Source: Escherichia coli O157:H7 (lineage in GTDB: Bacteria > Pseudomonadota > Gammaproteobacteria > Enterobacterales > Enterobacteriaceae). From it: a stretch of DNA of 64,000 nucleotides. The stretch lies in assembly GCF_013167455.1 (NCBI RefSeq), contig NZ_CP038328.1; one strand, given 5' to 3'. The notes under the pieces were generated by a model. The model had not been told where the DNA came from and did no database searches. It saw only the letters and a list, made by a program, of their open reading frames with translations. Shown piece after piece: positions 1 to 36,142 of this stretch. Made by a program: the position numbers and the translations under genes. The stretch's first letter is position 1. Each line of letters opens with the position of its first letter.

Positions 1-508
1 CCCACGCGCAGGTGGTACGCTGGTGTGCAATAAAACTGAAAATCCGCCGCTGTTCCGCGCGCTGGCGCTTCGTCGCAATCAGACTCTGCTCACTTTGCAC
101 AGCCTGAATATGCTGCATTCTCGCGGTTTCCTCGCGGAAGTTTTCGGCATCCTCGCGCGGCATAATATTTCGGTAGACTTAATCACCACGTCAGAAGTGA
201 GCGTGGCATTAACCCTTGATACCACCGGTTCAACCTCCACTGGCGATACGTTGCTGACGCAATCTCTGCTGATGGAGCTTTCCGCACTGTGCCGGGTGGA
301 GGTGGAAGAAGGTCTGGCGCTGGTCGCGTTGATTGGCAATGACCTGTCAAAAGCCTGCGGCGTTGGCAAAGAGGTATTCGGCGTACTGGAACCGTTCAAC
401 ATTCGCATGATTTGTTACGGCGCATCCAGCCATAACCTGTGCTTCCTGGTGCCCGGCGAAGATGCCGAGCAGGTGGTGCAAAAACTGCATAGTAATTTGT
501 TTGAGTAA
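1..508 (+). CDS. lysC: aspartokinase III (lysine-sensitive), C-terminal part; 5' end outside window
   Basis: Frame ending at 508 translates to the LysC C-terminus (...EQVVQKLHSNLFE stop); no start codon inside the window. Confidence 0.9.
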   Translation, partial: PRAGGTLVCNKTENPPLFRALALRRNQTLLTLHSLNMLHSRGFLAEVFGILARHNISVDLITTSEVSVALTLDTTGSTSTGDTLLTQSLLMELSALCRVEVEEGLALVALIGNDLSKACGVGKEVFGVLEPFNIRMICYGASSHNLCFLVPGEDAEQVVQKLHSNLFE

Positions 509-760
509 ATACTGTATGGCCTGGAAGCTATATTTCGGGCCGTATTGATTTTCTTGTCACTATGCTCATCAATAAACGAGCCTGTACTCTGTTAACCAGC
601 GTCTTTATCGGAGAATAATTGCCTTTAATTTTTTTATCTGCATCTCTAATTAATTATCGAAAGAGATAAATAGTTAAGAGAAGGCAAAATGAATATTATC
701 AGTTCTGCTCGCAAACGAATTCCCGTACACTGAACTCTCTGGCTCACTGAGGGCACCATC

Positions 761-1033
761 ATGGCACTCCCCCGTATTACCCAAAAAGAGATGACTGAAC
801 GCGAGCAGCGTGAACTTAAAACACTGCTGGATCGGGCGCGGATTGCGCATGGTCGCGTACTGACCAACTCCGAAACCAACAGCATTAAGAAAGAGTACAT
901 CGATAAATTAATGGTCGAGCGTGAGGCTGAAGCGAAAAAAGCCCGCCAGTTAAAGAAAAAGCAGGCTTATAAACCGGATCCTGAAGCGTCATTTAGCTGG
1001 TCAGCAAATACGTCGACGCGCGGCAGGCGCTGA
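761..1033 (+). CDS. yjbD: DUF3811-family small protein YjbD
   Basis: 90-aa ORF MALPRITQKEMTEREQRELK... matches remembered YjbD; conserved position between lysC and rluF. Confidence 0.85.
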   Translation: MALPRITQKEMTEREQRELKTLLDRARIAHGRVLTNSETNSIKKEYIDKLMVEREAEAKKARQLKKKQAYKPDPEASFSWSANTSTRGRR

Positions 1034-1906
1034 TTAGCGCCCCTTCTTTTTTCGCCCCGGCGAGGTAAAACGCTTACCGTTGGACGCCGGGCGACCGCCT
1101 TTTTCCGCCGTTTTTTCCATCTTAACGACTGGACGTTTGATGCCCGCTGTTTTCGGTTTGGCCTTCGCTTTAGGTTTTGCCTCGGAAGAGGAATTTTCGA
1201 TGAGCTTAAAGAGGTCGATTAACTCATCGTCGGTTAAATCGCGCCACTCCCCCAGCGGAATGCCGCTTAAGCTGACGTTCATAATGCGCGTACGTTCCAG
1301 CTTTTTCACTTCATAGCCGAAATGCTCGCACATGCGCCGGATCTGACGGTTCAGCCCCTGCACCAGGGTAATGCGGAAGACAAACGGCGCTTCTTTTTTG
1401 ACTTTGCACTTTTTAGTCACCGTCCCGAGGATCGGCACCCCCGCCCCCATACCACGAATAAATTCATCGGTAATCGGTTTATCGACCGTCACCAGATACT
1501 CTTTCTCATGATCGTTACCCGCACGGAGGATCTTATTCACCAGATCGCCGTGATTGGTGAGGAAAATCAGCCCCTGGGAGTCTTTATCCAGGCGGCCAAT
1601 CGGGAACACGCGTTTGCTGTGGTTAACGAAATCGACAATGTTATCGCGCTCGCCATCTTCGGTGGTGCTGACAATGCCTACGGGCTTGTTCAGGGCGATA
1701 AGTACCAAATCTTCGGCTTCCCGAGGCTCAATCAACTGACCGTTTACTTTCACAACGTCGCCGGGTTTCACCTGATCGCCAATGGTGGCTCGCTTGCCAT
1801 TAAGGAACACATTGCCTTGCTCGATATAGCGATCCGCTTCGCGGCGTGAGCAAATTCCGCTTTCGCTGATGTATTTATTTAAACGGACTGATGAGTCGGG
1901 CAGCAT
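1034..1906 (-). CDS. rluF: 23S rRNA pseudouridine synthase F
   Basis: 290-aa ORF with S4 domain and RluA-type core ([18 protein letters not shown]), lysine-rich C-tail; stop codon directly abuts yjbD stop. Confidence 0.92.
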
Positions 1907-2253
1907 AAATTCTCCTGTAAAACGCGGAATATACCGTACCTCTTAGCGGGGAAAAACAGGGTTATGCGGCAACGTCGAAATTAAATGTGATCTGCCACGC
2001 CTTTTATCACAAAAGTGTCTCCGGAAGTACAATGCAAATTTGCGTGGCAAAATAAGGATAATCAACATATTACGAATCGCTGCACACCTGTGCTGATAAC
2101 TACTGCGCAGAGAAACAAATGTGCAAGAGAAAGCGCTATTTCTCCCCATGCAAAGAGTGAAAAATCGCTTTGAAAGGCCATCATGATGGGGTTATATCAG
2201 ATCAAGCGGTGAGAAAGCGTATTTGCACAAATGTGCAGAACCAGGAGGCGGCA

Positions 2254-3201
2254 ATGGAAAACAGTGACGATATCCGTTTGATTGTGAAGATTGCCCAACT
2301 CTATTACGAACAGGATATGACGCAGGCGCAAATCGCGCGCGAACTGGGTATTTACCGCACCAACATCAGCCGCTTGCTTAAACGAGGCCGCGATCAGGGA
2401 ATTGTCACCATCGCCATCAACTATGACTACAACGAAAATCTCTGGCTGGAGCAGCAACTGAAGCAAAAGTTTGGCCTGAAAGACGTTGTGGTGGTGTCGG
2501 GAAATGATGAGGATGAAGAGACTCAACTGGCGATGATGGGGTTACACGGCGCGCAACTGCTGGATCGCTTGCTGGAGCCTGGCGATATTGTCGGTTTTTC
2601 CTGGGGTCGCGCGGTGAGCGCACTGGTTGAAAACTTGCCGCAGGCGGGGCAATCGCGGCAGTTAATCTGCGTACCAATTATTGGCGGACCGTCCGGTAAA
2701 CTCGAAAGCCGCTATCACGTAAACACATTAACCTACAGCGCGGCAGCGAAGCTGAAAGGGGAATCGCATCTCGCGGATTTTCCGGCTCTACTGGATAACC
2801 CATTAATTCGTAATGGGATCATGCAGTCTCAGCACTTTAAAACCATCTCTGCCTACTGGGATAATCTGGATGTCGCCCTGGTGGGAATTGGCTCACCGGC
2901 CATTCGCGACGGCGCTAACTGGCATGCGTTTTATGGTGGTGAAGAGAGTGACGACCTGAATGCCCGCCAGGTTGCTGGCGATATTTGCTCGCGCTTTTTT
3001 GATATTCACGGCGAAATGGTTGAAACGAATATGAGCGAAAAAACACTCTCTATCGAAATGAATAAATTAAAGCAGGCACGATATTCCATTGGCATTGCCA
3101 TGAGTGAAGAAAAATACAGCGGAATTATTGGTGCACTGCGTGGAAAATATATTAATTGTCTGGTAACGAATAGCAGCACAGCTGAACTATTACTGAAATA
3201 A
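2254..3201 (+). CDS. sorC: SorC-family transcriptional regulator of the L-sorbose operon
   Basis: Start chosen at internal ATG 2254 (MENSDDIRLIVKIAQLYYEQDMTQAQIARELGI...) preceded by AGGAGG at 2243-2248; N-terminal HTH plus sugar-phosphate-binding domain typical of SorC/DeoR. Confidence 0.85.
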   Translation: MENSDDIRLIVKIAQLYYEQDMTQAQIARELGIYRTNISRLLKRGRDQGIVTIAINYDYNENLWLEQQLKQKFGLKDVVVVSGNDEDEETQLAMMGLHGAQLLDRLLEPGDIVGFSWGRAVSALVENLPQAGQSRQLICVPIIGGPSGKLESRYHVNTLTYSAAAKLKGESHLADFPALLDNPLIRNGIMQSQHFKTISAYWDNLDVALVGIGSPAIRDGANWHAFYGGEESDDLNARQVAGDICSRFFDIHGEMVETNMSEKTLSIEMNKLKQARYSIGIAMSEEKYSGIIGALRGKYINCLVTNSSTAELLLK

Positions 3202-3270
3202 AAATCTTCCCGATGTTTATCGTAATAAAAATTACGGCGGGTCCCTATTATCTAAAATCAGGAGTCTGTT

Positions 3271-4077
3271 ATGCAAACGTGGTTAAATTTGCAGGATAAA
3301 ATCATTATCGTCACCGGCGGCGCATCCGGTATTGGTCTGGCGATTGTAGAGGAATTATTAGCACAAGGCGCAAACGTACAGATGGTAGATATTCACGGTG
3401 GCGATGGACAATATGAAGGTCATAAAGGCTATCAGTTTTGGCCGACCGATATTTCCAGCGCCAAAGAGGTAAATCATACGGTAGCGGAAATTATCCAGCG
3501 TTTTGGTCGCATCGACGGTCTGGTCAATAACGCCGGGGTCAATTTCCCGCGTCTGCTGGTCGATGAGAAAGCGCCTGCCGGGCAGTATGAACTCAACGAA
3601 GCTGCATTCGAAAAAATGGTCAATATCAACCAGAAAGGCGTTTTTCTGATGTCGCAGGCGGTGGCGCGACAGATGGTCAAACAACATGATGGCGTGATTG
3701 TGAATGTTTCCTCAGAAAGTGGGCTGGAAGGCTCAGAAGGCCAAAGCTGTTACGCCGCTACCAAAGCCGCGCTCAATAGCTTCACGCGCTCCTGGTCGAA
3801 AGAGCTGGGTAAACACGGTATCCGTGTGGTCGGTATCGCGCCGGGGATTCTGGAAAAAACCGGGCTACGCACGCCGGAATATGAAGAGGCGCTGGCGTGG
3901 ACGCGCAATATCACCGTCGAGCAGCTGCGTGAAGGCTATACCAAAAACGCCATTCCTATTGGGCGCGCCGGAAGATTAGCAGAAATCGCTGATTTTGTTT
4001 GTTATCTGCTGTCTGAACGCGCCAGCTATATCACCGGAGTAACCACTAACATTGCGGGCGGCAAAACGCGCGGCTAA
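3271..4077 (+). CDS. sorD: short-chain dehydrogenase, D-glucitol(sorbitol)-6-phosphate dehydrogenase of sor operon
   Basis: 268-aa ORF with SDR Rossmann motif TGGASGIG and catalytic YxxxK (SCYAATKAA); RBS AGGAG upstream. Confidence 0.85.
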   Translation: MQTWLNLQDKIIIVTGGASGIGLAIVEELLAQGANVQMVDIHGGDGQYEGHKGYQFWPTDISSAKEVNHTVAEIIQRFGRIDGLVNNAGVNFPRLLVDEKAPAGQYELNEAAFEKMVNINQKGVFLMSQAVARQMVKQHDGVIVNVSSESGLEGSEGQSCYAATKAALNSFTRSWSKELGKHGIRVVGIAPGILEKTGLRTPEYEEALAWTRNITVEQLREGYTKNAIPIGRAGRLAEIADFVCYLLSERASYITGVTTNIAGGKTRG

Positions 4078-4086
4078 GGAGGCTTT

Positions 4087-4494
4087 ATGGTCAACGCCAT
4101 TTTTTGTGCCCACGGCAAATTAGCTTGCGCCATGCTGGAATCGGTTCAGATGGTTTACGGCAACGCCAATGTTGAAGCCGTTGAATTTGTGCCCGGTGAA
4201 AACGCCGGAGACATCGTAGCAAAGCTGGAAAAATTAGTAAGCATTCACAATCAAAATGAGTGGCTGATTGCCGTGGATTTACAGTGCGGCAGCCCGTGGA
4301 ATGCGGCAGCGATGCTTGCGATGCGCAATCCTCGTCTGCGGGTAATCAGCGGACTTTCTCTGCCGCTGGCGCTCGAACTGGTTGATAACCAGGACAGCAT
4401 GAATGTTGATGAACTGTGTGAACACCTGACGCAAATCGCAAAGCAAACCTGCGTTGTCTGGAAACAACTGGCAACGACAGAGGAGGATTTCTGA
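4087..4494 (+). CDS. sorF: PTS mannose/sorbose-family EIIA component
   Basis: 135-aa ORF, EIIA-Man family size and context; RBS AAGGAGG at 4077-4083; stop overlaps sorB start by 1 nt. Confidence 0.82.
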   Translation: MVNAIFCAHGKLACAMLESVQMVYGNANVEAVEFVPGENAGDIVAKLEKLVSIHNQNEWLIAVDLQCGSPWNAAAMLAMRNPRLRVISGLSLPLALELVDNQDSMNVDELCEHLTQIAKQTCVVWKQLATTEEDF

Positions 4495-4988
4495 TGAACA
4501 TTACGCTCGCCCGCATTGATGACCGCCTGATCCACGGTCAGGTCACTACCGTCTGGTCGAAAGTGGCTAACGCCCAGCGCATTATTATCTGCAATGACGA
4601 AGTTTATAACGATGAAGTTCGCCGGACATTATTGCGTCAGGCTGCGCCACCGGGAATGAAGGTTAACGTGGTCAATATTGAAAAAGCCGTCGCGGTTTAT
4701 CACAACCCGCAATATCAGGACGAAACCGTTTTTTATCTTTTCACTCGCCCACAGGATGCCTTAGCGATGGTTCGCCAGGGGGTAAAAATAGGCACCCTGA
4801 ATATTGGCGGCATGGCCTGGCGGCCCGGTAAAAAACAGTTAACCAAAGCGGTTTCATTAGATGATGATGATATTAACGCATTTCATGAGTTAAATAATCT
4901 AGGCGTCATACTGGATTTACGCGTCGTAGCGTCAGATCCCTCAATCAATATTATCTACAAAATAAACGAACAGTTAATCGCAAATTAA
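4494..4988 (+). CDS. sorB: PTS mannose/sorbose-family EIIB component
   Basis: 164-aa ORF MNITLARIDDRLIHGQVTT... (EIIB-Man signature with phosphorylatable His in RLIHGQV); RBS AGGAGGA upstream. Confidence 0.88.
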   Translation: MNITLARIDDRLIHGQVTTVWSKVANAQRIIICNDEVYNDEVRRTLLRQAAPPGMKVNVVNIEKAVAVYHNPQYQDETVFYLFTRPQDALAMVRQGVKIGTLNIGGMAWRPGKKQLTKAVSLDDDDINAFHELNNLGVILDLRVVASDPSINIIYKINEQLIAN

Positions 4989-5053
4989 ATAATAGCGCCT
5001 GTGTACATATGCTTTAACAGGCAGGGATGACGACACTTAAAAGGTGACAAATC

Positions 5054-5851
5054 ATGGAAATAAGTACCCTACAAATCATTGCTATATTTCTTTTTTCCTG
5101 TATTGCCGGAATGGGCAGCGTGCTGGATGAATTTCAGACTCATCGCCCGTTAATTGCCTGTACGGTGATTGGTTTAATTCTCGGTGATTTAAAAACCGGA
5201 ATAATACTCGGTGGTACGCTGGAATTGATAGCTCTCGGCTGGATGAACGTCGGCGCGGCGCAATCTCCGGATTCTGCACTCGCCAGCATAATCTCCGCCA
5301 TTCTGGTTATCGTTGGTCAGCAAAGCATCGCCACCGGAATCGCCATCGCGTTGCCTGTGGCTGCGGCAGGCCAGGTGCTGACGGTGTTTGCCCGTACCAT
5401 CACCGTAGTGTTCCAGCACGCGGCGGATAAAGCAGCGGAAGAAGCACGGTTTCGCACTCTCGATATTCTGCATGTCTCCGCGCTTGGCGTGCAGGCGCTG
5501 CGCGTCGCCATTCCGGCACTGATTGTCTCGCTGTTCGTCAGCGCCGATATGGTGAGCAATATGTTAAACGCCATTCCCGAATTTGTGACCCGAGGTCTGC
5601 AAATTGCTGGCGGTTTTATCGTGGTAGTCGGTTACGCCATGGTGCTACGTATGATGGGCGTGAAATATTTGATGCCTTTCTTTTTCCTCGGTTTCCTCGC
5701 AGGTGGCTACCTCGATCTCAGTCTGCTGGCGTTCGGTGGCGTCGGCGTGATCATGGCCCTGGTCTACATCCAGCTAAATCCACAGTGGCGTAAAGCTGAA
5801 CCTCAACTCCTGGCCCCCGCTTCCACCGCCCTTGACCAACTTGACGATTAA
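5054..5851 (+). CDS. sorA: PTS mannose/sorbose-family EIIC membrane component
   Basis: 265-aa hydrophobic ORF, multiple TM segments, EIIC-Man family context. Confidence 0.85.
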   Translation: MEISTLQIIAIFLFSCIAGMGSVLDEFQTHRPLIACTVIGLILGDLKTGIILGGTLELIALGWMNVGAAQSPDSALASIISAILVIVGQQSIATGIAIALPVAAAGQVLTVFARTITVVFQHAADKAAEEARFRTLDILHVSALGVQALRVAIPALIVSLFVSADMVSNMLNAIPEFVTRGLQIAGGFIVVVGYAMVLRMMGVKYLMPFFFLGFLAGGYLDLSLLAFGGVGVIMALVYIQLNPQWRKAEPQLLAPASTALDQLDD

Positions 5852-5861
5852 CGGAGCCATC

Positions 5862-6686
5862 ATGGAACAGAGAAAAATTACACGCGGCGATCTGGTGAGC
5901 ATGTTTCTGCGCTCCAACCTGCAACAGGCGTCCTTTAACTTTGAACGTATTCACGGGCTGGGTTTTTGCTACGACATGATCCCCGCCATCAAGCGACTTT
6001 ACCCAGTAAAAGAGGATCAGGTTGCGGCGCTCAGGCGACACCTGGTGTTCTTTAATACCACGCCAGCCGTATGTGGCCCGGTCATCGGCGTCACTGCCGC
6101 CATGGAAGAGGCGCGGGCCAACGGCGCGGAAATTGATGACGGCACCATTAACGGCATCAAAGTCGGTCTGATGGGACCATTGGCAGGGGTTGGCGATCCA
6201 CTGGTCTGGGGAACGCTGCGCCCGATTACCGCCGCGCTCGGCGCATCGCTGGCGCTGTCTGGCAACATTCTCGGCCCGCTGCTGTTCTTCTTTATTTTCA
6301 ACGCGGTGCGTCTGGCGATGAAGTGGTATGGCCTACAGCTCGGCTTTCGCAAAGGGGTGAATATCGTCAGCGATATGGGCGGGAATGTGCTGCAAAAACT
6401 CACCGAAGGCGCGTCGATTCTCGGACTGTTTGTGATGGGCGTGCTGGTCACCAAATGGACGTCAATCAACGTACCGTTGGTGGTTTCACAAACGCATGCC
6501 GCCGATGGCTCCACCGTCACCATGACCGTGCAGAACATTCTCGATCAACTTTGCCCTGGTTTGCTGGCGCTCGGTCTGACGCTACTGATGGTTCGTCTGC
6601 TCAACAAAAAAATTAACCCGGTATGGCTGATTTTCGCCCTGTTTGGCTTAGGGATTATCGGCAATGCGCTGGGCTTCCTGTCCTGA
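5862..6686 (+). CDS. sorM: PTS mannose/sorbose-family EIID membrane component
   Basis: Start chosen at ATG 5862 (MEQRKITRGDL...) after GGAG; 274 aa, hydrophobic, EIID-Man family. Confidence 0.85.
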   Translation: MEQRKITRGDLVSMFLRSNLQQASFNFERIHGLGFCYDMIPAIKRLYPVKEDQVAALRRHLVFFNTTPAVCGPVIGVTAAMEEARANGAEIDDGTINGIKVGLMGPLAGVGDPLVWGTLRPITAALGASLALSGNILGPLLFFFIFNAVRLAMKWYGLQLGFRKGVNIVSDMGGNVLQKLTEGASILGLFVMGVLVTKWTSINVPLVVSQTHAADGSTVTMTVQNILDQLCPGLLALGLTLLMVRLLNKKINPVWLIFALFGLGIIGNALGFLS

Positions 6687-6737
6687 TTCTTCGCCCCGGC
6701 ACGACTGCCGGGGCCATCGTTCAACATGAGGTGGTTT

Positions 6738-7967
6738 ATGAAAACAACAGCTCTGCGTCTTTATGGTAAACGTGATTTACGCCTGGAAACCTTTGACCTT
6801 CCTGAAATGCAGGAGGATGAAATCCTCGCGACGGTGGTCACTGACAGCCTGTGCCTCTCTTCCTGGAAAGAGGCCAATCTGGGTGAAAACCATAAAAAAG
6901 TACCCGACGATGTGGCGACCAACCCAATCATCATCGGCCACGAGTTTTGCGGCGATATTCTGGCCGTGGGTAAAAAGTGGCAGCACAAATTCCAGCCGGG
7001 TCAGCGTTATGTGATTCAGGCCAACCTGCAACTCCCCGACCGCCCGGACTGCCCCGGCTACTCCTTCCCGTGGGTAGGCGGCGAGGCCACGCATGTGGTT
7101 ATTCCCAACGAGGTCATGGAACAAGATTGCCTGCTGGCATACGACGGCGAAACCTATTTTGAAGGCTCGCTGGTTGAACCGCTTTCCTGCGTGATTGGCG
7201 CGTTCAACGCCAACTATCATCTTCAGGAAGGTAGTTATAACCACACGATGGGGATTCGCCCGCAAGGGCGCATGCTGATCCTCGGCGGCACCGGACCAAT
7301 GGGACTGTTGGCGATTGATTATGCGCTACATGGACCCGTTAACCCGTCGCTGCTCGTCATTACCGATACCGACAACGATAAATTGAGTTATGCGCGCAAG
7401 CACTATCCATCAGAACCGCAAACACTGATTCATTATCTCAATGCCGCCGATGCAGCATTTGATACGCTAATGGCGCTGAGTGGCGGTCACGGCTTCGATG
7501 ATATTTTCGTCTTTGTGCCTAATGAAGGACTGGTGACTCTCGCCTCTTCCTTGCTGGCGACAGATGGTTGCCTGAATTTCTTCGCCGGACCGCAGGATAA
7601 ACATTTCAGCGCGCCAATTAATTTCTACGATGTGCATTATGCATTTACCCACTACGTGGGCACGTCAGGCGGCAATACCGACGACATGCGCGCAGCGGTC
7701 AAATTGATTGAAGAGAAAAAAGTGCAGGCCGCAAAAGTGGTAACACATATTCTTGGGCTGAATGCCGCGGGCGAAACCACGCTTGAATTGCCTGCCGTCG
7801 GCGGCGGCAAAAAGCTGGTGTATACCGGGAAATACCTGCCGCTGACGTCACTCACGCAGATTCAGGATCAAGCACTGGCGGCGATTCTGGCGCGTCATCA
7901 GGGGATCTGGTCCGGTGAGGCGGAGCAATATCTGCTCACTCATGCAGAGGCAATTTCCCATGATTAA
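6738..7967 (+). CDS. sorE: L-sorbose-1-phosphate reductase (zinc-type medium-chain dehydrogenase)
   Basis: Start chosen at ATG 6738 (MKTTALRLYGKRDLRLETF...) after GAGGTGG; 409 aa, MDR fold with GHEFCG motif. Confidence 0.83.
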   Translation: MKTTALRLYGKRDLRLETFDLPEMQEDEILATVVTDSLCLSSWKEANLGENHKKVPDDVATNPIIIGHEFCGDILAVGKKWQHKFQPGQRYVIQANLQLPDRPDCPGYSFPWVGGEATHVVIPNEVMEQDCLLAYDGETYFEGSLVEPLSCVIGAFNANYHLQEGSYNHTMGIRPQGRMLILGGTGPMGLLAIDYALHGPVNPSLLVITDTDNDKLSYARKHYPSEPQTLIHYLNAADAAFDTLMALSGGHGFDDIFVFVPNEGLVTLASSLLATDGCLNFFAGPQDKHFSAPINFYDVHYAFTHYVGTSGGNTDDMRAAVKLIEEKKVQAAKVVTHILGLNAAGETTLELPAVGGGKKLVYTGKYLPLTSLTQIQDQALAAILARHQGIWSGEAEQYLLTHAEAISHD

Positions 7968-8127
7968 TCGCGCTACTTAACTCTGCATGTCGCTGGCTGG
8001 TCACCGCGGCAACTTCGCGACCTGATGTGCGGCTGATTGCTGAAGCGGCCCAATGTGCACGAGAAGGATAAAAAAACATCAGCGCCTTAAGGGGCGCTCA
8101 AATTGGTGGCAAAGTACACATTGTTTA

Positions 8128-8226
8128 TGCCGGATGCGGAATAAAGCCTTATTCGGCCTACATAATCTCGAAAATTCAATATATTGCAGTTATCTGGTAG
8201 GCCTGGTAAGCGTAGCGCATCAGGCA
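8128..8226. repeat. pair of oppositely oriented REP-like palindromic units (BIME-like) downstream of sorE
   Basis: GCCGGATGCGGAATAAAGCCTTATTCGGCCTAC at 8128-8162 and GTAGGCCTGGTAAGCGTAGCGCATCAGGC at 8197-8226. Confidence 0.75.
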
Positions 8227-8349
8227 ATGCTGTGTTTGTCATCAGTCTCAGCGCCCGGTGCAATACGTGACATCGTGAGCCATGTCAGTAAGTGGTTAAA
8301 TTCGCAGTGGTAGCATGCCTTCCGTGATTTCTTACTAACCGGAGAAGTA

Positions 8350-9039
8350 ATGGAACTGCTTTTATTGAGTAACTCGACGCTGCCGGGTAAAGCCTGGCTG
8401 GAACATGCACTGCCGCTGATTGCTGAACAGTTGCAGGGTCGCCGCTCAGCGGTGTTTATCCCTTTCGCTGGCGTAACGCAGACCTGGGATGATTACACAG
8501 CGAAAACGGCTGCGGTTCTCGCTCCGCTGGGTGTTTCTGTCACCGGTATTCATAGCGTTGTCGATCCCGTTGCCGCGATTGAAAATGCGGAAATTGTGAT
8601 TGTCGGCGGCGGTAATACTTTCCAGTTGCTGAAACAGTGCCGCGAGCGCGGGCTGCTGGCTCCAATTACTGACGTGGTTAAACGTGGCGCGCTGTATATT
8701 GGCTGGAGCGCAGGCGCTAACCTTGCTTGCCCAACCATTCGTACCACCAACGATATGCCGATTGTCGATCCGCAAGGTTTCGATGCGCTAAATCTGTTCC
8801 CGTTGCAAATCAACCCGCACTTCACCAACGCGCTGCCGGAAGGCCATAAAGGTGAAACCCGTGAGCAGCGTATTCGCGAACTGCTGGTCGTCGCGCCAGA
8901 ACTGACGATTATTGGTCTACCGGAAGGTAACTGGATCACAGTGAGTAAAGGTCACGCAACGCTGGGTGGCCCGAATACCACCTATGTGTTTAAGGCCGGT
9001 GAAGAAGCGGTTCCGCTGGAAGCTGGTCACCGTTTTTAA
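8350..9039 (+). CDS. pepE: alpha-aspartyl dipeptidase (peptidase E)
   Basis: 229-aa [33 protein letters not shown]... matches PepE. Confidence 0.93.
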
Positions 9040-9046
9040 GTGAATT

Positions 9047-9116
9047 GCCGGATGCATGATCCGGCATCTTGTTCATAGTGCCTGATGCGACGCTTGACGC
9101 GTCTTATCAGGCCTAC
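9047..9116. repeat. hairpin plus REP element between convergent pepE and yjbB
   Basis: GCCGGATGCATGATCCGGC hairpin at 9047-9065, REP unit GCCTGATGCGACGCTTGACGCGTCTTATCAGGCCTAC at 9080-9116. Confidence 0.75.
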
Positions 9117-9129
9117 AGGATTCACAATA

Positions 9130-10761
9130 TTAATACTCGTCCCGTCCCTCATCTTCATCAGGCTGTTCCAGCACACTGTAAGCCACCGAACAAAACAGCG
9201 AGTTCAGACGCTGCATATCTCCCAGTAAGCCTAAATGTAGCGAACTGGTTTCAATGCTTTGCACGTTTTGCTGATGCAGGCGATCGACGTGGGCGTGGGA
9301 ATAGCGGCGATTAAGAATGCGAAAGCGATGCTTGCTGCGGCGCAAACGACGAGCGCTGGTGACATCGCCAGAGAAGAACACCGACATTGCCAGCTTTAAA
9401 TTACTGAGCAATTGCTCATAGAGCGCATCCAGTTCCTTCAAGCCATCAAGCGAAAATGCTCGCCTTGCAGCCAGCGATTTGTCGGCAATTTCACTACTCA
9501 TGCGCTCGACGATATCGGAGGCCTGTTCAAGGTTGAGCGACATTTCGATGATCTCCGCCCAGCGGCGCGACTCTTCTTCTGCCAGTTCCTCTTTTGGCAT
9601 CCGCGCCAGATACAGCTTAATGGCGGTATAGAGAACGTTGATATCATCTGCCAGCTTACGCAGCTCTTTCTCCTGCCTTGGCTCGCCGTGCATCACTTTA
9701 TTCAGCCCTTCCATCATCTGTTCCATGGCGTCGCCAATGCGCAGGGTTTCGCGCGCGGCGTTCGCCAGAGCAAGCGTGGGCGTATCCAGCGCGCTGACAT
9801 CCAGATGTTTAGGCCGTAGCTGGGTATCCAGTTCCGGTTCATCGCGAATAATCGTTTTGCAAAACCGTGCCATCGGGTCAACAAATGGCAGCATGGCCAG
9901 GCAACGTACAAGGTTGTAGAAGACGTGGAAATAGATCACCAGTTCCGCTTTTGGCAATGACAACTTCCCCATTGTCTCTGCCAGCAAATGGACAAACGGC
10001 AGGATAATCAGGCTACCCACCAGCTTAAACAGCAGACTACCCAGCGCGACACGGCGGGCTGCGGCATTGGCGGCACTGTTGTTGAGCATCGCCAGCAGGC
10101 CGGAACCGAGGTTAGCACCAATCACCAGACAGAGCGCCACGGGGAAGGAGATAATGCCTGCGGCGGTCAGAGTCGCGGTCAGCAGTACAGCAGCAAGGCT
10201 GGAGTAGCTGATAATGGCGAACATCGCGCCAATCAGCGCATCCAGCAGAATATCGCCGGTCAGCGAGGCAAAGATCACCTGAACGCCGTTTGCCTGGGTG
10301 ATCGGCGTTACGGCCTGCACAATCAACTCCAGCGCCAGCAAAATCAGCCCAAGACCAATACCGACGCGGCCCAGTTGCCCGGCGCGTGACTGTTTGCGTC
10401 CGAGGAAAAAAATCACGCCGATAAAAATAAGTAACGGTGACAGCCAGGATAAGTCGAAGGTGAGAATACGCGCCATTAGCGCCGTCCCGACATCTGCCCC
10501 CAGCACAATGACCAGAGCCGGTGCGAGGGCTACCAGATCCTGAGCGACGAACGAGGTCACCAGCATGGTGGTGGCATTACTGCTCTGTACCAGTGCGGTA
10601 ACGCCGATCCCCGCGCAAAAGGCGAGCGGCTTTTTTTCGACGCTCCGGCTAAGGACAGTACGCAAACGCGCGCCGAAGACGCGCATTACGCCGGTTCGAA
10701 CAATATGAGTCCCCCAGACCAGCAGGGCGACGGCAGAAAGCAGGTTAAGCAGCGTTAACAC
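9130..10761 (-). CDS. yjbB: Na/Pi-cotransporter-family membrane protein with PhoU-like domains
   Basis: 543-aa ORF, hydrophobic N-terminal half, PhoU-like C-terminal half; conserved position next to metH. Confidence 0.88.
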   Translation of the reverse strand: MLTLLNLLSAVALLVWGTHIVRTGVMRVFGARLRTVLSRSVEKKPLAFCAGIGVTALVQSSNATTMLVTSFVAQDLVALAPALVIVLGADVGTALMARILTFDLSWLSPLLIFIGVIFFLGRKQSRAGQLGRVGIGLGLILLALELIVQAVTPITQANGVQVIFASLTGDILLDALIGAMFAIISYSSLAAVLLTATLTAAGIISFPVALCLVIGANLGSGLLAMLNNSAANAAARRVALGSLLFKLVGSLIILPFVHLLAETMGKLSLPKAELVIYFHVFYNLVRCLAMLPFVDPMARFCKTIIRDEPELDTQLRPKHLDVSALDTPTLALANAARETLRIGDAMEQMMEGLNKVMHGEPRQEKELRKLADDINVLYTAIKLYLARMPKEELAEEESRRWAEIIEMSLNLEQASDIVERMSSEIADKSLAARRAFSLDGLKELDALYEQLLSNLKLAMSVFFSGDVTSARRLRRSKHRFRILNRRYSHAHVDRLHQQNVQSIETSSLHLGLLGDMQRLNSLFCSVAYSVLEQPDEDEGRDEY

Positions 10762-10980
10762 GAGTTCAGGTTCTCCTTATCGTTATATGTTCCTGAAGCA
10801 ATTGAATGACCAAAGGACCGGAAACACGCTGACTGGCATCTTTACTGTGCCTTTTGACATTCGTTTTTCCGGCTAAGATTATTCCAGCCTGTTTCCAGTA
10901 TAAGTGTTTCATATTAATAAAGAGACAGGGCACTCATTGAGCGCCCTGTTTGTTGTAAGGAAAAGTGACAGATTTGTGAA

Positions 10981-13900
10981 TCAGTCCGCGTCATACCCCA
11001 GATTCGGTGCCAGCCAGCGCTCAACATCGGAGACGCTCATACCTTTACGGCGGGCATAGTCTTCAACCTGATCGCGCTGAATTTGCGCCACCGCGTAGTA
11101 CTTGCTGTCCGGGTGGCTGAAATACCAACCCGAAACCGATGCACCGGGCCACATGGCGAAAGATTCTGTGAGTTTCATGCCGGTATGTTTTTCCACTTCC
11201 AGCAGCTCCCAGATGGTGGCTTTTTCCGTATGTTCCGGGCAGGCCGGGTAGCCCGGTGCCGGACGGATGCCCTGGTAGTTTTCGCGGATCAGTTCTTCGT
11301 TGCTGAGGTTCTCGTTCGGCGCATAGCCCCAGTAGACTTTACGCACACGCTCATGGAGATACTCCGCAAAGGCTTCGGCTAAACGGTCGGCAAGCGCTTT
11401 CACCATGATTTTGTTGTAATCATCGTGCTGCGCTTCAAAGGCATCAGCCAGTGCGTCCTCTTCCAGCCCGCCAGTCACGGCAAATGCGCCGATGTAATCT
11501 GCTTTACCAGAAAGCTTCGGCGCAACGAAGTCAGCGAGACAGTAGTTAGCGAATCCCGTTTTTTCGGTCTGTTGACGCAGATGGTGGCTGACGTTGATCA
11601 CATGGGTGCGCGTTTCGTCACGGTAGATTTCAATGTCATCGCCCACACGGTTTGCCGGGAACAGGCCCACCACGCCACGCGGATTCAGCGTTTTCTCGGC
11701 GCTTAATTTATCCAGCATGTCGTTGGCGTCTTTAAACAGCCGCTGCGCCTCAACGCCCACCACTTCATCTTCCAGAATGCGCGGATACTTCCCGGCCAGC
11801 GACCAGGTCATAAAGAACGGTGTCCAGTCGATGTAATTACGCAGAGTTTCGATGCTGGCTTCAACTTCCTGCACGCCGAGACGGTGCGCCACCGGCGGCG
11901 TGTAAGCCTGCCAGTCAAAAGCGAAGTCGTTATCGCGCGCCGCTTCCAGCGTGACCGGTGGTGTGCGTGGTTTCTTGCGCCCGTGCTGAATACGTACGGT
12001 TTCGTACTCCTTGCGGGTACGAGCGACAAAATCATCGCGCTGAGTATCGGAAAGCAGCGCCGCCACCACACCAACGGTGCGCGAGGCATTCTGCACATAC
12101 ACCGTCGGGCCGCTGTAGTTCTGCTCGATTTTCACCGCCGTGTGCGCTTTTGAGGTCGTCGCGCCACCGATCAGTAACGGAATGGTGAAGCCCTGACGCT
12201 CCATCTCTTTCGCCACGTTAACCATCTCGTCCAGCGACGGCGTGATAAGCCCCGAAAGTCCAATCAGATCAGCATTCACTTCTTTAGCGGTACGGAGAAT
12301 TTTTTCCGCAGGCACCATAACGCCGAGATCGACAATTTCGTAGTTGTTACATTGCAGCACCACACCAACGATATTTTTACCGATGTCGTGGACGTCGCCC
12401 TTCACGGTGGCGATCACCATCTTGCCGTTGGTTTTGCCCTGCTCTTTGCTGGCTTCAATAAACGGTTCGAGGTAGGCCACTGCCTGCTTCATCACACGCG
12501 CCGATTTGACCACCTGTGGCAGGAACATTTTCCCTTCGCCGAACAGATCGCCGACCACGTTCATGCCGTCCATTAGCGGGCCTTCAATCACTTCAATCGG
12601 GCGCGTAGCCTGCTGGCGGGCTTCTTCGGTATCCTGCTCGATAAACTCAGTAATGCCTTTGACCAGCGAGTATTCCAGACGTTTATTCACTTCCCACGAG
12701 CGCCACTCCGCCTGCTGGGCGTTAGCGGTGTCGTCGGTTTTGCTGCCGCGATATTTCTCGGCAAGCTCCAGTAAACGCTCAGTGCCATCATCGCGACGAT
12801 TAAGAATCACATCTTCCACCGCGTCGCGCAGTTCAGCGGGCAGGTCGTCGTAAATCGCCAGTTGCCCGGCGTTGACGATCCCCATATCCATGCCATTGCG
12901 AATAGCGTAGTAGAGGAACACCGCGTGAATGGCTTCGCGCACCGGATCGTTGCCACGGAATGAGAAAGAAACGTTAGATACGCCGCCGGAAATCAGCGCG
13001 TGCGGCAGTTCGCGTTTGATGTCTTCGCAGGCGCCGATAAAGTCCTGCGCATAGTTGTTGTGCTCTTCAATGCCGGTGGCGACCGCGAAGATGTTCGGGT
13101 CGAAGATGATATCTTCTGGCGGGAAGCCAACCTCTTCGGTGAGGATTTTGTACGCCCGACGGCAAATCTCAATTTTCCGTGCGCGGGTATCGGCCTGCCC
13201 CTGTTCGTCAAAGGCCATTACCACCACCGCTGCACCGTAACGACGCAACAGTTTCGCATGATGGATAAAGGCGTCGACGCCCTCTTTCATTGAGATAGAG
13301 TTAACAATGCCTTTGCCCTGAATACACTTCAGCCCCTTTTCGATGACCTCCCATTTTGAGGAGTCGATCATAATCGGCACGCGAGCGATATCCGGTTCAC
13401 CGGCAATCAGATTGAGAAAACGCACCATCGCCGCTTCGGCATCGAGCATCCCTTCATCCATGTTGATATCGATAATCTGCGCGCCGTTTTCCACCTGCTG
13501 ACGCGCTACATCCAGCGCCTCGCTGTATTTCTCTTCTTTGATCAGGCGCTTGAACTTAGCGGAACCGGTGACGTTGGTGCGTTCACCCACGTTCACAAAC
13601 AGGCTATCGTCGCCAATGTTCAGCGGCTCCAGGCCGGACAAACGGCAGGCTACGGGAATTTCAGGCAGTTTGCGCGGCGCTAATCCTTCTACTGCACGAC
13701 TCATCGCTGCAATATGTTGTGGCGTGGTGCCACAGCAGCCGCCGACGATATTGAGAAAACCCGCTTGCGCCCATTCACGTATCTGTTTTGCCATCGTGTC
13801 GGCGTCGAGATCGTACTCACCAAAGGCGTTGGGTAGCCCGGCGTTCGGGTGCGCGGTGACGTAGCATTCCGCAATCCGTGATAGTTCCTGCACGTACTGG

Positions 13901-14664
13901 CGCAGTTCATCTGGCCCCAGCGCGCAGTTGAGGCCAAAAGTCAGGGCTTCGGCATGGCGCAGGGAGTTGTAAAATGCTTCGGTGGTCTGTCCGGAGAGCG
14001 TGCGCCCGGAGGCGTCGGTGATGGTGCCGGAGATCATAATCGGCAGCTCAACGCCTAACGCTTCGAACTCCGTTTTCACCGCAAAGACCGCCGCTTTGGC
14101 GTTAAGGGTGTCGAAAACGGTTTCAATCAGAATCAGATCCGCACCGCCTTCCACTAATGCTTTGGTGGATTCGCGATAGGCCGCCACCAGCTGGTCAAAA
14201 GTGATGTTGCGGAATGCCGGATCGTTCACGTCCGGAGAAATGGACGCCGTGCGGTTGGTTGGGCCGAGAACGCCGGCAACGTAGCGCGGTTTCTCCGGCG
14301 TGCGCGCGGTCCACTCGTCAGCACAGGCGCGCGCCAGTTTCGCCGCCGCAAAGTTGATTTCCGCCGACAGGGATTCCATCTGGTAATCCGCCATCGCAAT
14401 GGTCGTGGAGTTGAAGGTGTTGGTTTCGATGATATCCGCGCCCGCTTCAAAGTAGGCGTTGTGGATAGCGGCGATCACTTCCGGTTTGCTTAGCACCAGC
14501 AGATCGTTATTGCCTTTGAGGTCGCATGGCCAGTCGGCAAAGCGTTCACCACGAAAATCGGCTTCGTTCAGTCGATAGCTCTGGATCATGGTGCCCATAC
14601 CGCCGTCCAGCACCAGAATACGTTCATTTAACTGCGCACGCAGTTGTTCCACTTTGCTGCTCAC
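10981..14664 (-). CDS. metH: cobalamin-dependent methionine synthase
   Basis: Translation matches MetH from [27 protein letters not shown] to ...[11 protein letters not shown]; start set at GTG codon (14662-14664) giving 1227 aa. Confidence 0.95.
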
Positions 14665-14758
14665 ACTTGCTCCCGACACGCTCAACCCAGATTTAATAAA
14701 AATTCAACAAACCATACTGGCATAAACGCATCTGTGGTAAAAGCGACCACCACGCAAC

Positions 14759-16004: not shown

Positions 16005-19896
<3,892 letters not shown>

Positions 19897-24369: not shown

Positions 24370-24813
24370 ATGGTTATTAGTATTCGCCGCTCACGGCATG
24401 AGGAAGGGGAGGAACTCGTTGCGATTTGGTGTCGATCTGTCGATGCCACCCACGATTTTTTATCAGCAGAGTATCGGGCCGAGCTGGAAGAGCTGGTTCG
24501 TTCCTTTCTGCCGGAAGCACCGTTGTGGGTCGCGGTTAATGAACGGGATCAGCCGGTTGGGTTTATGTTGTTAAGTGGGCAGCATATGGATGCGCTGTTT
24601 ATCGATCCTGATGTGCGCGGCTGCGGCGTGGGCCGGATGCTGGTGAAGCATGCGCTCTCAATGGCCCCGGAACTGACAACCAATGTTAATGAGCAAAATG
24701 AGCAGGCGGTTGGGTTCTATAAGAAGGTGGGTTTTAAGGTTACGGGACGCTCTGAGGTGGACGATTTGGGGAAACCGTATCCGTTGCTGGATCTGGCGTA
24801 TGTGGGGGAATAA
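24370..24813 (+). CDS. yjaB: GNAT-family N-acetyltransferase YjaB
   Basis: 147-aa ORF with GNAT acetyl-CoA motif (RGCGVGRMLV); RBS AAGGAGAG upstream; conserved position between metA and rrnE. Confidence 0.85.
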   Translation: MVISIRRSRHEEGEELVAIWCRSVDATHDFLSAEYRAELEELVRSFLPEAPLWVAVNERDQPVGFMLLSGQHMDALFIDPDVRGCGVGRMLVKHALSMAPELTTNVNEQNEQAVGFYKKVGFKVTGRSEVDDLGKPYPLLDLAYVGE

Positions 24814-24886
24814 GCTGCCCCCTATCGTGCCTGCGTAAGCTGGATAAAACGCGCCAGCGTCGCATCCGGCATTTTTTTGCACCAAC

Positions 24887-24920
24887 GCAAAAAGGCCATC
24901 CGTCAGGATGGCCTTTCGCT
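24887..24920 (-). terminator. rrnE operon terminator (T1-like)
   Basis: AGGCCATCCGTCAGGATGGCCT hairpin followed on the minus strand by a U-run, immediately 3' of 5S rRNA. Confidence 0.8.
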
Positions 24921-24927
24921 TTATTTG

Positions 24928-33447: not shown

Positions 33448-34769
33448 CGCGACAATTTTGCCAACAGCGTTTTGCGCGTGATCCCTAACTGACGGGCGGC
33501 TTCGGTTTTGTTGCCGCCCGTTTTCTCCAGTGCCGCCAGAATCACTTCTTTTTCGACTTCCACCAGCGGCTGAATATCCAGGCTTTGTGCCAGCGGGATC
33601 GGCGTACTGGCAATCGCCAGCGGCAGCTCGCGTTCGGAAATATATTCCCCAGTCAGCAGCACCACCGCCCGTTCCACCGCATTTTCCAGTTCACGAATAT
33701 TTCCCGGCCAGTCGTAATGAATCAACAGATCCATCGCCTGGGGCGTAAAGCCTTTTACCGCCTTGCGATTACGTTCAGCAAAGCGCTGCAGAAAATGGCC
33801 AGCCAGCAGAGGAATATCTTCCCGCCGTTGCCGCAGCGATGGTACTTCAATCGCCACCACGTTCAGGCGATAGTAGAGATCCTGGCGAAAACGCCCGGCA
33901 TTCACCTCTGCGGCAAGATCGCGATGGGTCGCGGCAATCAGCCGGACATCAACCGAAATAGTCTGGTTGCTACCGACACACTGAACTTCGCGCTCCTGAA
34001 TCGCACGCAGCAGACGCACCAGCATCATCGGCGAGATATCGCCAATTTCATCGAGAAACAACGTGCCGCCGTCCGCCTCAACAAAGCGCCCTTCCCGGCG
34101 TTTATCGGCTCCAGTAAACGCCCCTTTTTCGTGACCGAACAATTCAGATTCCAGCAAGGATTCGTTGAGTGCCGCACAGTTGAGCGTTACCAGCGGTTTT
34201 TCGCTACGTGCGCTACTGGCGTGAATCGCCCTGGCGACCAGCTCTTTACCGGTGCCGGAATCGCCGTGGATCAGCACCGTGGCTTCCGATGGCGCGACGA
34301 GGGCGATTTCACTGAGCAGGTGTTGCATCGCCGGGCTTTTACCGACCATACCGAACTGGCTGGCAGTCACCGCAGGCGTTTCAGCATCAATAATGTGCGT
34401 ATGCGCGAGCGCCTTTTCCAGCGTCGCCTGCAGGTTATCGAAATCCAGCGGCTTGATGAGATAATCCAGCGCCCCGGTTTTCAACGCCTCTACCGCCGTC
34501 TCGACGCTAGAGTATGCGGTCATAATCAGTACCGGAATCGCCGGATTTAACGCTTTGATCTCTTTTAGCGTGGCAATGCCGTCCATCTCCGCCATTCGCA
34601 CATCGCAAAGCACAAGATCAAAAACCCGCTCCCGCACCTGCTCCAGCGCCTGTCGCCCGCTGTTCGCCAGCGCGACGTTATAGCCCCAGCCGCGCAGCAA
34701 AGCCTGCAAAATAGTGCAGTGGCTAATGTCATCATCCACCACCAGAATATCGATATTATCGTGCGTCAT
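33444..34769 (-). CDS. zraR: sigma54-dependent response regulator ZraR
   Basis: 441-aa ORF with receiver domain, AAA+ sigma54-activator core (GESGTGKE-type Walker A, GAFTGA) and C-terminal HTH. Confidence 0.93.
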   Translation of the reverse strand: MTHDNIDILVVDDDISHCTILQALLRGWGYNVALANSGRQALEQVRERVFDLVLCDVRMAEMDGIATLKEIKALNPAIPVLIMTAYSSVETAVEALKTGALDYLIKPLDFDNLQATLEKALAHTHIIDAETPAVTASQFGMVGKSPAMQHLLSEIALVAPSEATVLIHGDSGTGKELVARAIHASSARSEKPLVTLNCAALNESLLESELFGHEKGAFTGADKRREGRFVEADGGTLFLDEIGDISPMMLVRLLRAIQEREVQCVGSNQTISVDVRLIAATHRDLAAEVNAGRFRQDLYYRLNVVAIEVPSLRQRREDIPLLAGHFLQRFAERNRKAVKGFTPQAMDLLIHYDWPGNIRELENAVERAVVLLTGEYISERELPLAIASTPIPLAQSLDIQPLVEVEKEVILAALEKTGGNKTEAARQLGITRKTLLAKLSR

Positions 34770-36142
34770 CCTTGTGGGTCCTTACGCGTAATATTGACCG
34801 GAAGCCAGAGGGTGAACCTTGCGCCTTTTCCCTCCAGGCTTGCGACCTGAATTGTACCACCGTGTTGTTCAACAATATTATGCACGACCGCCAGCCCCAG
34901 TCCGGTGCCTTCGGCTTTGGTGGTGAAGTACGGGGTGAAGATGGCTTCAAGCTGATCTGCCGCAATTCCCTTACCGCTGTCGGTAACGCTGATTTTCACG
35001 CCCGCGCCGCTTTCGCTGGCCGTCACGCTAATCACGCCATGCTGACCAATCGCCTGAATAGCATTGAGATAAAGATTCAACAGGACCTGAGTCAGCCTGT
35101 CCGGATCGGCCTGAATTTCCGGCAACGTGTCGTTGGCGGTAAAGCGTAACTGGATCTCCCGGCAGTTTGCATCCTGGCTTACCAGCTGTAATGAGTGGTT
35201 AATCAGCGTGTTGAGATCCACCGCCTGCAAAGCCAGATGCGTTGGCTTAACCAGTTCCAGCAGCTCGCTTACCACGCGGTTTAAACGGTCAGCTTCTTTC
35301 GCCATCACCTGCGCCAGTTGATGCGCTTCTCCCCCTGCTGGCGCGCGCTCGGCAAAGTATTTTGCCAGCCCTTTAATCGAGGAAAGCGGGTTACGAATTT
35401 CGTGGGCAACGCCTGCCGCAAGATGCCCCAGCGCCACCAGCTTCTCTTTGCGCTTCATTTCATCTTGTAGAAGCTGGCGCGAGCGCAGATAGCGGCGATA
35501 CCAGAAGAATGACAATACGCTTGCCAGCAAGACCGTCGCCAGGGCGAAGAGGATAATCAGGGTGTTTCTCTGCTCACGATCTTCGGCACTCACAATATTA
35601 CTGGCGTCGAAAGCGATGAAAATTGCTTGTGGTGTCGCGGCATACTGCTGCATATGGCGCATCCGGTGCATTCCAGCAGCAAACATCGGTTGAAACTGGC
35701 GATAAATTTCCAGAACAGGCTCGCCGTCTGCGCTATCGATCCGCCGCCACACTTCTTCATCTCCCGGATGTAACTGCTGCATTTCCTGCGGGGAATAAAG
35801 CTGTTTTCCCACCATGCCGGAGTTGCTATGCATCACGATTGTTCCTTGTTCATCCGTGACCGCAAACCAACGTACTCCAGGCTGCCCGGCCATTTCTTCC
35901 AGTAAGGCCTGCTGCTGCGCATGATGCATGCGCATCCCCATGCCGACGCGCGAGCCGGATTCGAGAGCACGAATAAGTACACTGCCTTTTTCCAGCAGCG
36001 TTTGTCTGGCGGCGGCAGTCTCGCGGCCATAATCGCGAATCACCGTCACCGCAAACAACCCTACCAGCCCAACAATGACCACGGGGAGGATCGCGCTTAA
36101 CCATTTAGCTAAGGAGTCTTTAGAACGTTGCATAAAACGCAT
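34766..36142 (-). CDS. zraS: sensor histidine kinase ZraS
   Basis: 458-aa ORF with two TM segments and HisKA/HATPase domains (LAAGVAHEIRNPL); 4-bp overlap with zraR. Confidence 0.92.
   Translation of the reverse strand: MRFMQRSKDSLAKWLSAILPVVIVGLVGLFAVTVIRDYGRETAAARQTLLEKGSVLIRALESGSRVGMGMRMHHAQQQALLEEMAGQPGVRWFAVTDEQGTIVMHSNSGMVGKQLYSPQEMQQLHPGDEEVWRRIDSADGEPVLEIYRQFQPMFAAGMHRMRHMQQYAATPQAIFIAFDASNIVSAEDREQRNTLIILFALATVLLASVLSFFWYRRYLRSRQLLQDEMKRKEKLVALGHLAAGVAHEIRNPLSSIKGLAKYFAERAPAGGEAHQLAQVMAKEADRLNRVVSELLELVKPTHLALQAVDLNTLINHSLQLVSQDANCREIQLRFTANDTLPEIQADPDRLTQVLLNLYLNAIQAIGQHGVISVTASESGAGVKISVTDSGKGIAADQLEAIFTPYFTTKAEGTGLGLAVVHNIVEQHGGTIQVASLEGKGARFTLWLPVNITRKDPQG

Follow-up and report, generated by a model that had tools for sequence, protein, structure and literature searches.

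The closest described counterpart of the locus examined here is the L-sorbose operon sorCDFBAME of Klebsiella pneumoniae, reportedly described by Sprenger, Wehmeier and Lengeler. The steps of the L-sorbose pathway come from characterised Klebsiella and Escherichia coli operons and are applied here, by orthology, to the seven genes that lie between rluF and pepE in a 64,000-nucleotide stretch of E. coli O157:H7 DNA (hereafter the window). At the nucleotide level, the K. pneumoniae operon is about 78% identical overall to that of E. coli (PMC2831201). DH5-alpha grew on L-sorbose when given a cloned amplicon of the E. coli CFT073 genes c4981-c4987 (PMC2831201). Enteroaggregative E. coli (EAEC) 042 carries a sor operon beside rluF and uses sorbose; MG1655 does neither (PMC2808357). 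More recently, induction of the sor genes was shown to depend on sorbose, a sorE knockout in sequence type (ST) 131 lost its growth benefit on sorbose and an ST10 strain gained sorbose use by knock-in of the operon (PMC12817954, 2025). The operon is found in more than 86% of the members of every phylogroup except A (9.6%) and B1 (12.1%) (PMC12817954).

In the window, the seven genes are all on the + strand and follow the order SorC-type regulator, short-chain dehydrogenase/reductase (SDR), enzymes IIA, IIB, IIC and IID (EIIA to EIID) of a mannose-family phosphotransferase system (PTS) and medium-chain dehydrogenase/reductase (MDR)-type reductase (Table 1). The K. pneumoniae operon has the same seven genes in the same order. 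Open reading frames (ORFs), family scans and RefSeq annotation all recovered the co-oriented set that the first-pass annotation had recognised between rluF and pepE. E. coli 2017C-4109 is 100% identical to the window over positions 1000-9100, and its RefSeq record gives the identical seven genes, the last of which is named sorE, L-sorbose 1-phosphate reductase. Positions 1942-8268 very probably correspond to a chromosomal sorCDFBAME operon followed by a dead sdhL remnant, a terminal hairpin and a pair of repetitive extragenic palindromic (REP) units, the whole being an old resident of the locus that was deleted in K-12. This finding is correct but ordinary and its essentials are already in the literature: the identification of the sugar as sorbose, the position beside rluF and the absence from MG1655 have all been published.

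The map position, close to metH and iclR, is the one expected for sor. The window has metH at 10981-14685 and is colinear with K-12 across the metH stretch; iclR follows metH in the syntenic loci of ECONIH1 and CFT073. In MG1655, rluF and pepE are divergent neighbours separated by 211 bp and the sor genes are absent, as had been stated at the outset. The sor segment is the sole block of more than 300 bp that is present in the window and missing from K-12 by megablast, which bears out the earlier description of the operon as the only clearly variable cargo of the window. The other E. coli sor operons (CFT073, EAEC 042 Ec042-4384-4390, ST131 and ST648) occupy the same locus with the same genes, and their differences are allelic only, amounting to 1-10 amino acids per protein. 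ST648-type alleles (ECONIH1) further differ in that sdhL is intact and the REP pair is missing. The loci of Klebsiella, Raoultella and Citrobacter are found at the same place beside rluF, with 73-98% protein identity per gene, but the Klebsiella species examined have an intact sdhL after sorE where the window has a 114-bp remnant. The E. coli mannose PTS manXYZ belongs to the same PTS family and shares the IIA/IIB/IIC/IID four-domain architecture; it differs in that the sor IIA and IIB are separate proteins, that manXYZ is without a linked reductase or dehydrogenase, and that SorB is much nearer to IIB-Sor than to IIB-Man.

The assignment to sorbose had to be weighed against the use of the PTS and dehydrogenases for another sugar, such as mannose, fructose, fructoselysine or glucitol. 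The NCBIfam models whose cut-offs are passed are generic mannose/fructose/sorbose subfamily models that cannot separate these sugars, and SorE reached no curated cut-off in the NCBIfam scan. Since the curated hidden Markov models (HMMs) are blind to the sugar, the proteins were compared with solved structures, a comparison that covers SorC and SorB, the other five proteins being compared with other Klebsiella species only. SorC matches K. pneumoniae SorC (PDB 2W48) with 609 bits across all 315 residues, and its second-best structure, 3EFB (588 bits), was deposited as a 'probable sor-operon regulator'. The best PDB match of SorB is 1NRZ, the sorbose-specific IIB of K. pneumoniae, which it matches essentially end to end with 301 bits versus 168 bits for the E. 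coli IIB-Man. The two proteins thus side with the K. pneumoniae sorbose proteins over other mannose-family PTSs, and the sorbose-type PTS proposed by the first-pass annotation holds. The comparison with CFT073 points the same way. Window positions 1907-7997 (6091 bp) are 96.9% identical, with zero gaps, to the CFT073 fragment that confers growth on L-sorbose, and the CFT073 cloning primers match the window exactly at 7968-7997 and at 1911-1935, the query for the latter lacking the first three bases of the primer. The seven Sor proteins are equal in length to those of CFT073 and 94.8-99.4% identical to them (SorC, c4987, 98.1%; SorD 98.5%; SorE, c4981, 99.0%); sorF diverges more than any other gene of the operon, with 94.8% identity to CFT073 and 73-87% to other genera. 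The deletion of sorE also abolishes the benefit in ST131. A function in the use of another sugar is extremely improbable. An operon that is intact but silent or impaired in the source strain, for instance through a regulatory change or a temperature-sensitive SorD, is less far-fetched but still unlikely. Its proponents could cite the 48 h on sorbose needed by the ST10 knock-in (PMC12817954) and the slow growth of the CFT073 clone in DH5-alpha (PMC2831201); against it, the seven ORFs are full length as in CFT073, the control region keeps its conserved blocks intact, other sequenced isolates have a 100% identical sequence and no pseudogene flag is attached to any of the seven genes.

By analogy with the characterised operons, SorF (EIIA), SorB (EIIB), SorA (EIIC) and SorM (EIID) would together form a mannose-family PTS permease that brings in L-sorbose as L-sorbose-1-phosphate. 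SorE would reduce L-sorbose-1-phosphate to D-glucitol-6-phosphate, which SorD would oxidise to D-fructose-6-phosphate for glycolysis. SorC, encoded first, would regulate the operon from the 347-bp region that is common to the divergent rluF. This region can be aligned over its full length between 13 loci from about 8 genera. Four blocks are invariant, TGTGATC (1986-1992), ACAAAAGTG (2009-2017), CAAATGTGCAA (2116-2126) and GGTTATATCAGAT (2190-2202), as are two palindromes, GCACACCTGTGC (2082-2093) and TGCACAAATGTGCA (2224-2237), the latter directly 5' of the sorC start codon. These blocks and palindromes are plausible candidates for SorC operators and promoter elements. A promoter scan of the region returned 5 sites versus 7.1 expected, the best at 2004-2033; no promoter is named there, its -10 hexamer varying across genera. 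An Rfam scan of window positions 1-12000 (E <= 1) found no match within 1907-8349.

The age of the operon at this site was examined by scanning one genome per species for SorE, which gave 80 loci onto which the window proteins were then mapped. The order yjbD-rluF(-)/sorCDFBAME(+) was found in E. whittamii, two more Escherichia genomospecies, Pseudocitrobacter, several Citrobacter, Raoultella, Enterobacter-like genomes and Cedecea, as well as in Klebsiella grimontii, K. michiganensis, K. oxytoca, K. spallanzanii and K. indica, and pepE-yjbB-metH lies downstream of sor in most of these loci. In E. albertii, the side from sorA to metH is visible and the contig stops inside sorA. Separately, the SorE match in the E. 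albertii type strain (locus L042, 1517-2767) is limited to the first ~250 residues and ends ~500 bp before sdhL; the gene may be disrupted. Nucleotide identities between the window and Citrobacter, Klebsiella or Raoultella are 74-86% for the sor genes and 79-86% for the flanking genes, a closeness that fits vertical descent. The composition of the sor segment is unremarkable: its GC content is 51.2% versus 52.1% in the remainder of the window, and its trinucleotide signature ranks 16th of 50, inside the spread of other 6.3-kb stretches. The segment showed neither mobility genes (integrase, transposase) nor a tRNA or flanking direct repeats, and its seven long ORFs all belong to sor families. 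Salmonella enterica is an exception: it has no sor operon, and a DUF2058 gene lies between its rluF and pepE (L088-L090, 8240-8779). The shared site in at least 8 genera, the flank-like identity, the ordinary composition, the absence of mobility genes and the phylogroup data together indicate that the operon was resident before these genera split. From these comparisons, the sor operon is read as ancestral at the locus and the K-12 allele as a derived, deleted state.

The K-12 state was followed over 5426 complete E. coli genomes. The sor operon is present at this site in 2865 of them, and the 95 nt specific to the empty allele in 2557, always in single copy and only at this site; the two alleles are mutually exclusive and jointly cover all but about four genomes. 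Alignment to K-12 delimits the sor-specific segment to about 1942-8268. The window shares with K-12 positions 1907-1941, the only common part of the control region, and, clearly, 8269-8349, with partial similarity from about 8253. The empty allele (L004) is 211 bp long. Its nt 1-65 and 112-211 match other genera, nt 112-130 being similar to what lies next to pepE in Citrobacter and, for a shorter length, in the sor+ ECONIH1. In K-12, the genes on either side are ordinary E. coli alleles, and two different rluF backgrounds carry the empty allele. Salmonella was considered as its donor and rejected because of the DUF2058 gene. About half of the sequenced E. coli, K-12 included, carry what is, judging from these alignments, a 211-bp deletion allele of low diversity.

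Several observations weigh against this history in its simplest form. The empty allele is no clean deletion product of a window-type allele: its nt 36-65 are nearer to the rluF-proximal sequence of Citrobacter and Klebsiella than to the E. coli sor+ version, and about 46 nt (66-111) are unmatched in the window, the Salmonella locus or the loci of other genera compared. Between Escherichia and Pseudocitrobacter (L006, L007), nucleotide identity is 86-93% for the sor genes and 81-82% for pepE/yjbB; the sor genes being closer than the flanks, some gene flow took place at the locus and pure vertical descent followed by a single deletion is too simple. The comparison with K. pneumoniae, for its part, draws on two PDB chains and published figures, not on a K. 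pneumoniae locus. Recombination between lineages has probably occurred here, with a hint of an exchange of the sor segment between Escherichia and Pseudocitrobacter. Such an allele replacement by homologous recombination, the site dimorphism in E. coli and the more 'ancestral-looking' rluF-proximal 30 nt of the empty allele are what would favour the opposite polarity, in keeping with the accessory-islet label of the first-pass annotation: horizontal acquisition would have placed the operon in a K-12-like rluF/pepE site in the lineage of this strain, with the junction marked by the hairpin and REP units. This account is very unlikely. It is at odds with the conserved place and orientation in at least 8 genera, with the flank-like identities and ordinary composition, with the lack of integrase, transposase, tRNA and flanking direct repeats, and with the presence of the operon in Escherichia outgroups and all basal E. 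coli phylogroups. Moreover, the empty allele is nearly invariant (>= 99% identity over its 95 specific nt in 2545 of the 2557 genomes), which suggests that it is young. The alignment upholds a variable segment but not its proposed junction, since the right breakpoint, at about 8253-8268, lies 27-42 bp beyond the REP pair, a pair that is itself missing from another sor+ allele.

The gap between sorE and pepE measures about 1.09 kb in other Escherichia species and 382 bp in the window. The extra sequence is a 270-codon gene, sdhL, that starts with an ATG overlapping the stop codon of sorE (ATGATTAA). The intact Escherichia SdhL matches HI0607 of Haemophilus influenzae (PDB 1NPY) with 380 bits over residues 1-268 and passes NCBIfam NF009202. 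sdhL is found 3' of sorE in about 27 enterobacterial loci, with an 8-nt overlap in about 26, from Escherichia to Raoultella. The window holds no intact shikimate dehydrogenase frame of ~270 amino acids but a 114-nt pseudogene remnant, overlooked by the first-pass annotation, in which the start ATG at 7960 still overlaps the sorE stop, 58 nt of the 5' end are joined to 56 nt of the 3' end by a 701-bp deletion between 8017 and 8018, and codon 7 is a premature TAA (7978-7980) where intact genes carry CAA; the original stop TAA is at 8071-8073. The remnant carries no annotation in the RefSeq record of 2017C-4109. The stretch around the sorE-sdhL junction (7930-8120) is 100% identical in an O157:H7 strain. 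Both the remnant, with its stop at codon 7, and the REP pair recur in CFT073. Of the sor+ E. coli genomes, 2688 show the identical deletion junction and 177 have a full-length gene, which adds up to exactly 2865. In ST648, sdhL was noted as co-induced with the sor genes and treated as a lineage-specific insertion (PMC12817954). The comparative data say the reverse: sdhL would be ancestral and would have been lost once, through the shared 701-bp deletion, in the lineage behind most (94%) of the sor+ E. coli.

The cloned CFT073 fragment supported growth without sdhL, so that sdhL is dispensable for sorbose use. SdhL/HI0607-type proteins are not known to have an assigned physiological role. We tentatively suggest that the ancestral sor operon had eight genes and that SdhL might act on a ketohexose or hexitol derivative, for instance by reducing 5-keto-D-fructose or its phosphate, the gene having since been lost by 94% of sor+ E. 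coli. Reduction of 5-ketofructose is known for some members of the shikimate dehydrogenase family (PMC7954740). A close relationship of SdhL to the 5-ketofructose reductase 7COK was considered and found unsupported, with 63 bits versus 118 bits for an archaeal AroE. As SdhL is no nearer to that reductase than to AroE, it is the genomic context that suggests a role in ketohexose metabolism.

The two opposed REP-like units and the G+C-rich hairpin named by the first-pass annotation are real, as established by a consensus search and a terminator scan. The hairpin (AGCGCC, loop TTAAGG, GGCGCT) has a 6-bp stem with 5 G-C pairs and starts 8 nt past the stop of the sdhL remnant, an equivalent position being conserved in other Escherichia alleles. 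A T-run accompanies it solely on the - strand and is taken as incidental. A - strand terminator was rejected because nothing is transcribed toward the hairpin from the right, and the + strand A-run, which owes part of its length to the sdhL stop codon, is less marked in other alleles; for these reasons the hairpin is read as an operon 3' stem-loop, and it is probably that of the sor transcript. The REP consensus CTTATCMGGCCTAC matches the region twice, in inverted orientation and between genes (Table 1), and the whole window 6 times versus 0.33 expected. This is the usual arrangement of REP elements and bacterial interspersed mosaic elements (BIMEs) in E. coli, two opposed cores in a 3' intergenic region, with nothing unusual. 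Compared with shuffled sequence, the region has a more stable fold (z = -4.2). The REP pair is present in E. whittamii and CFT073; in the sor+ sdhL+ ECONIH1, it is missing, as is the hairpin's right arm. The hairpin and REP pair are accordingly best regarded, from this distribution among alleles, as ordinary 3' features of the operon combined with an independent indel, and not as insertion scars. Neither sor REP unit reaches the Rfam model naRNA4 at E <= 1, unlike the pair at 9046-9113 in the pepE-yjbB interval. The latter, REP-derived, scores 47 bits against naRNA4, below the gathering score of 59.5, and is the only credible Rfam match in 1-12000.

Table 1. Coordinates of the features at the rluF-pepE locus (window positions, except the last row, numbered within the K-12 empty allele)
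Feature	Coordinates	Strand	Evidence or remark
rluF (23S rRNA pseudouridine 2604 synthase)	1034-1906	-	NCBIfam NF007784, 608 bits, and RefSeq annotation; conserved left flank, divergent to sorC
rluF-sorC intergenic control region	1907-2253	+	347 bp; alignment of 13 loci
sorC, SorC/DeoR-family regulator	2254-3201	+	N-terminal helix-turn-helix and Sugar-bind domain PF04198 (Pfam, 1.6e-80)
sorD, SDR-type D-glucitol-6-phosphate dehydrogenase	3271-4077	+	NCBIfam NF004817 (sorbitol-6-phosphate dehydrogenase), 501 bits, cut-off 304
sorF, mannose-family PTS EIIA	4087-4494	+	TIGR00824, 148 bits, cut-off 98
sorB, PTS EIIB-Sor	4494-4988	+	TIGR00854, 223 bits, above curated cut-off
sorA, PTS EIIC-Sor	5054-5851	+	TIGR00822, 421 bits, cut-off 340
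sorM, PTS EIID-Sor	5862-6686	+	TIGR00828, 471 bits, cut-off 293
sorE, L-sorbose-1-phosphate reductase, zinc-type medium-chain dehydrogenase fold	6738-7967	+	Pfam ADH_N and ADH_zinc_N; RefSeq name sorE
sdhL remnant (shikimate dehydrogenase-like)	7960-8073	+	aligned to intact sdhL of E. whittamii, of other Escherichia and of E. coli ECONIH1
G+C-rich hairpin	8081-8098	strand-neutral	terminator scan
REP pair, opposite orientations, BIME-like	8128-8226	strand-neutral	REP consensus search; cores 8148-8161 (+) and 8197-8210 (-)
pepE-proximal segment common to the K-12 empty allele, holding the pepE upstream region	8253-8349	+	BLAST of the empty allele against the window; megablast against K-12
pepE (dipeptidase E)	8350-9039	+	NCBIfam NF003642, 357 bits; conserved right flank
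Unmatched stretch of the empty allele, CTATTTGTTATTTCCATTGGCTTGAATTCGTTACCTGCTCAAATCA	66-111		about 46 nt

Other observations were made around the locus and elsewhere in the window. The interval preceding pepE is a hot spot of varied cargo, the Citrobacter and Klebsiella loci (L009-L033) holding 1-9 kb of extra DNA there, and one enterobacterial metagenome contig (L091, 3319-8909) carries a TetR regulator and a three-component efflux system between sdhL and pepE. On the other side, yjbD and rluF abut at 1033/1034 in the window; these convergent genes lie about 125-132 bp further apart in K-12 and strain B. The gene yjaA is absent, positions 24809-24922 being 114 bp long versus 520 bp including yjaA in K-12, and arpA is present at 16005-18188 (-). 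The presence of sor and arpA and the absence of yjaA would presumably fit a phylogroup D/E-type background, going by the Clermont PCR markers. The zraS protein (34769-36142) is 85% identical to that of K-12, its neighbours being at roughly 98%, and 287 bp of the gene (35564-35850) were left unaligned by megablast; it looks like a divergent or recombinant allele.

The sor operon, linked to fitness and enriched in pathogens, is a marker by which phylogroups A and B1 can be told apart from other E. coli, and as such it is textbook knowledge and the subject of recent papers. What is added here is that its presence or absence would reflect loss from an ancestral locus and not the gain of an islet, and that an unannotated sdhL remnant lies 3' of sorE in most sor+ E. 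coli. Overall, the coupling of sorE and sdhL, conserved in other genera, gives a context in which a role of SdhL in ketohexose metabolism may be considered.

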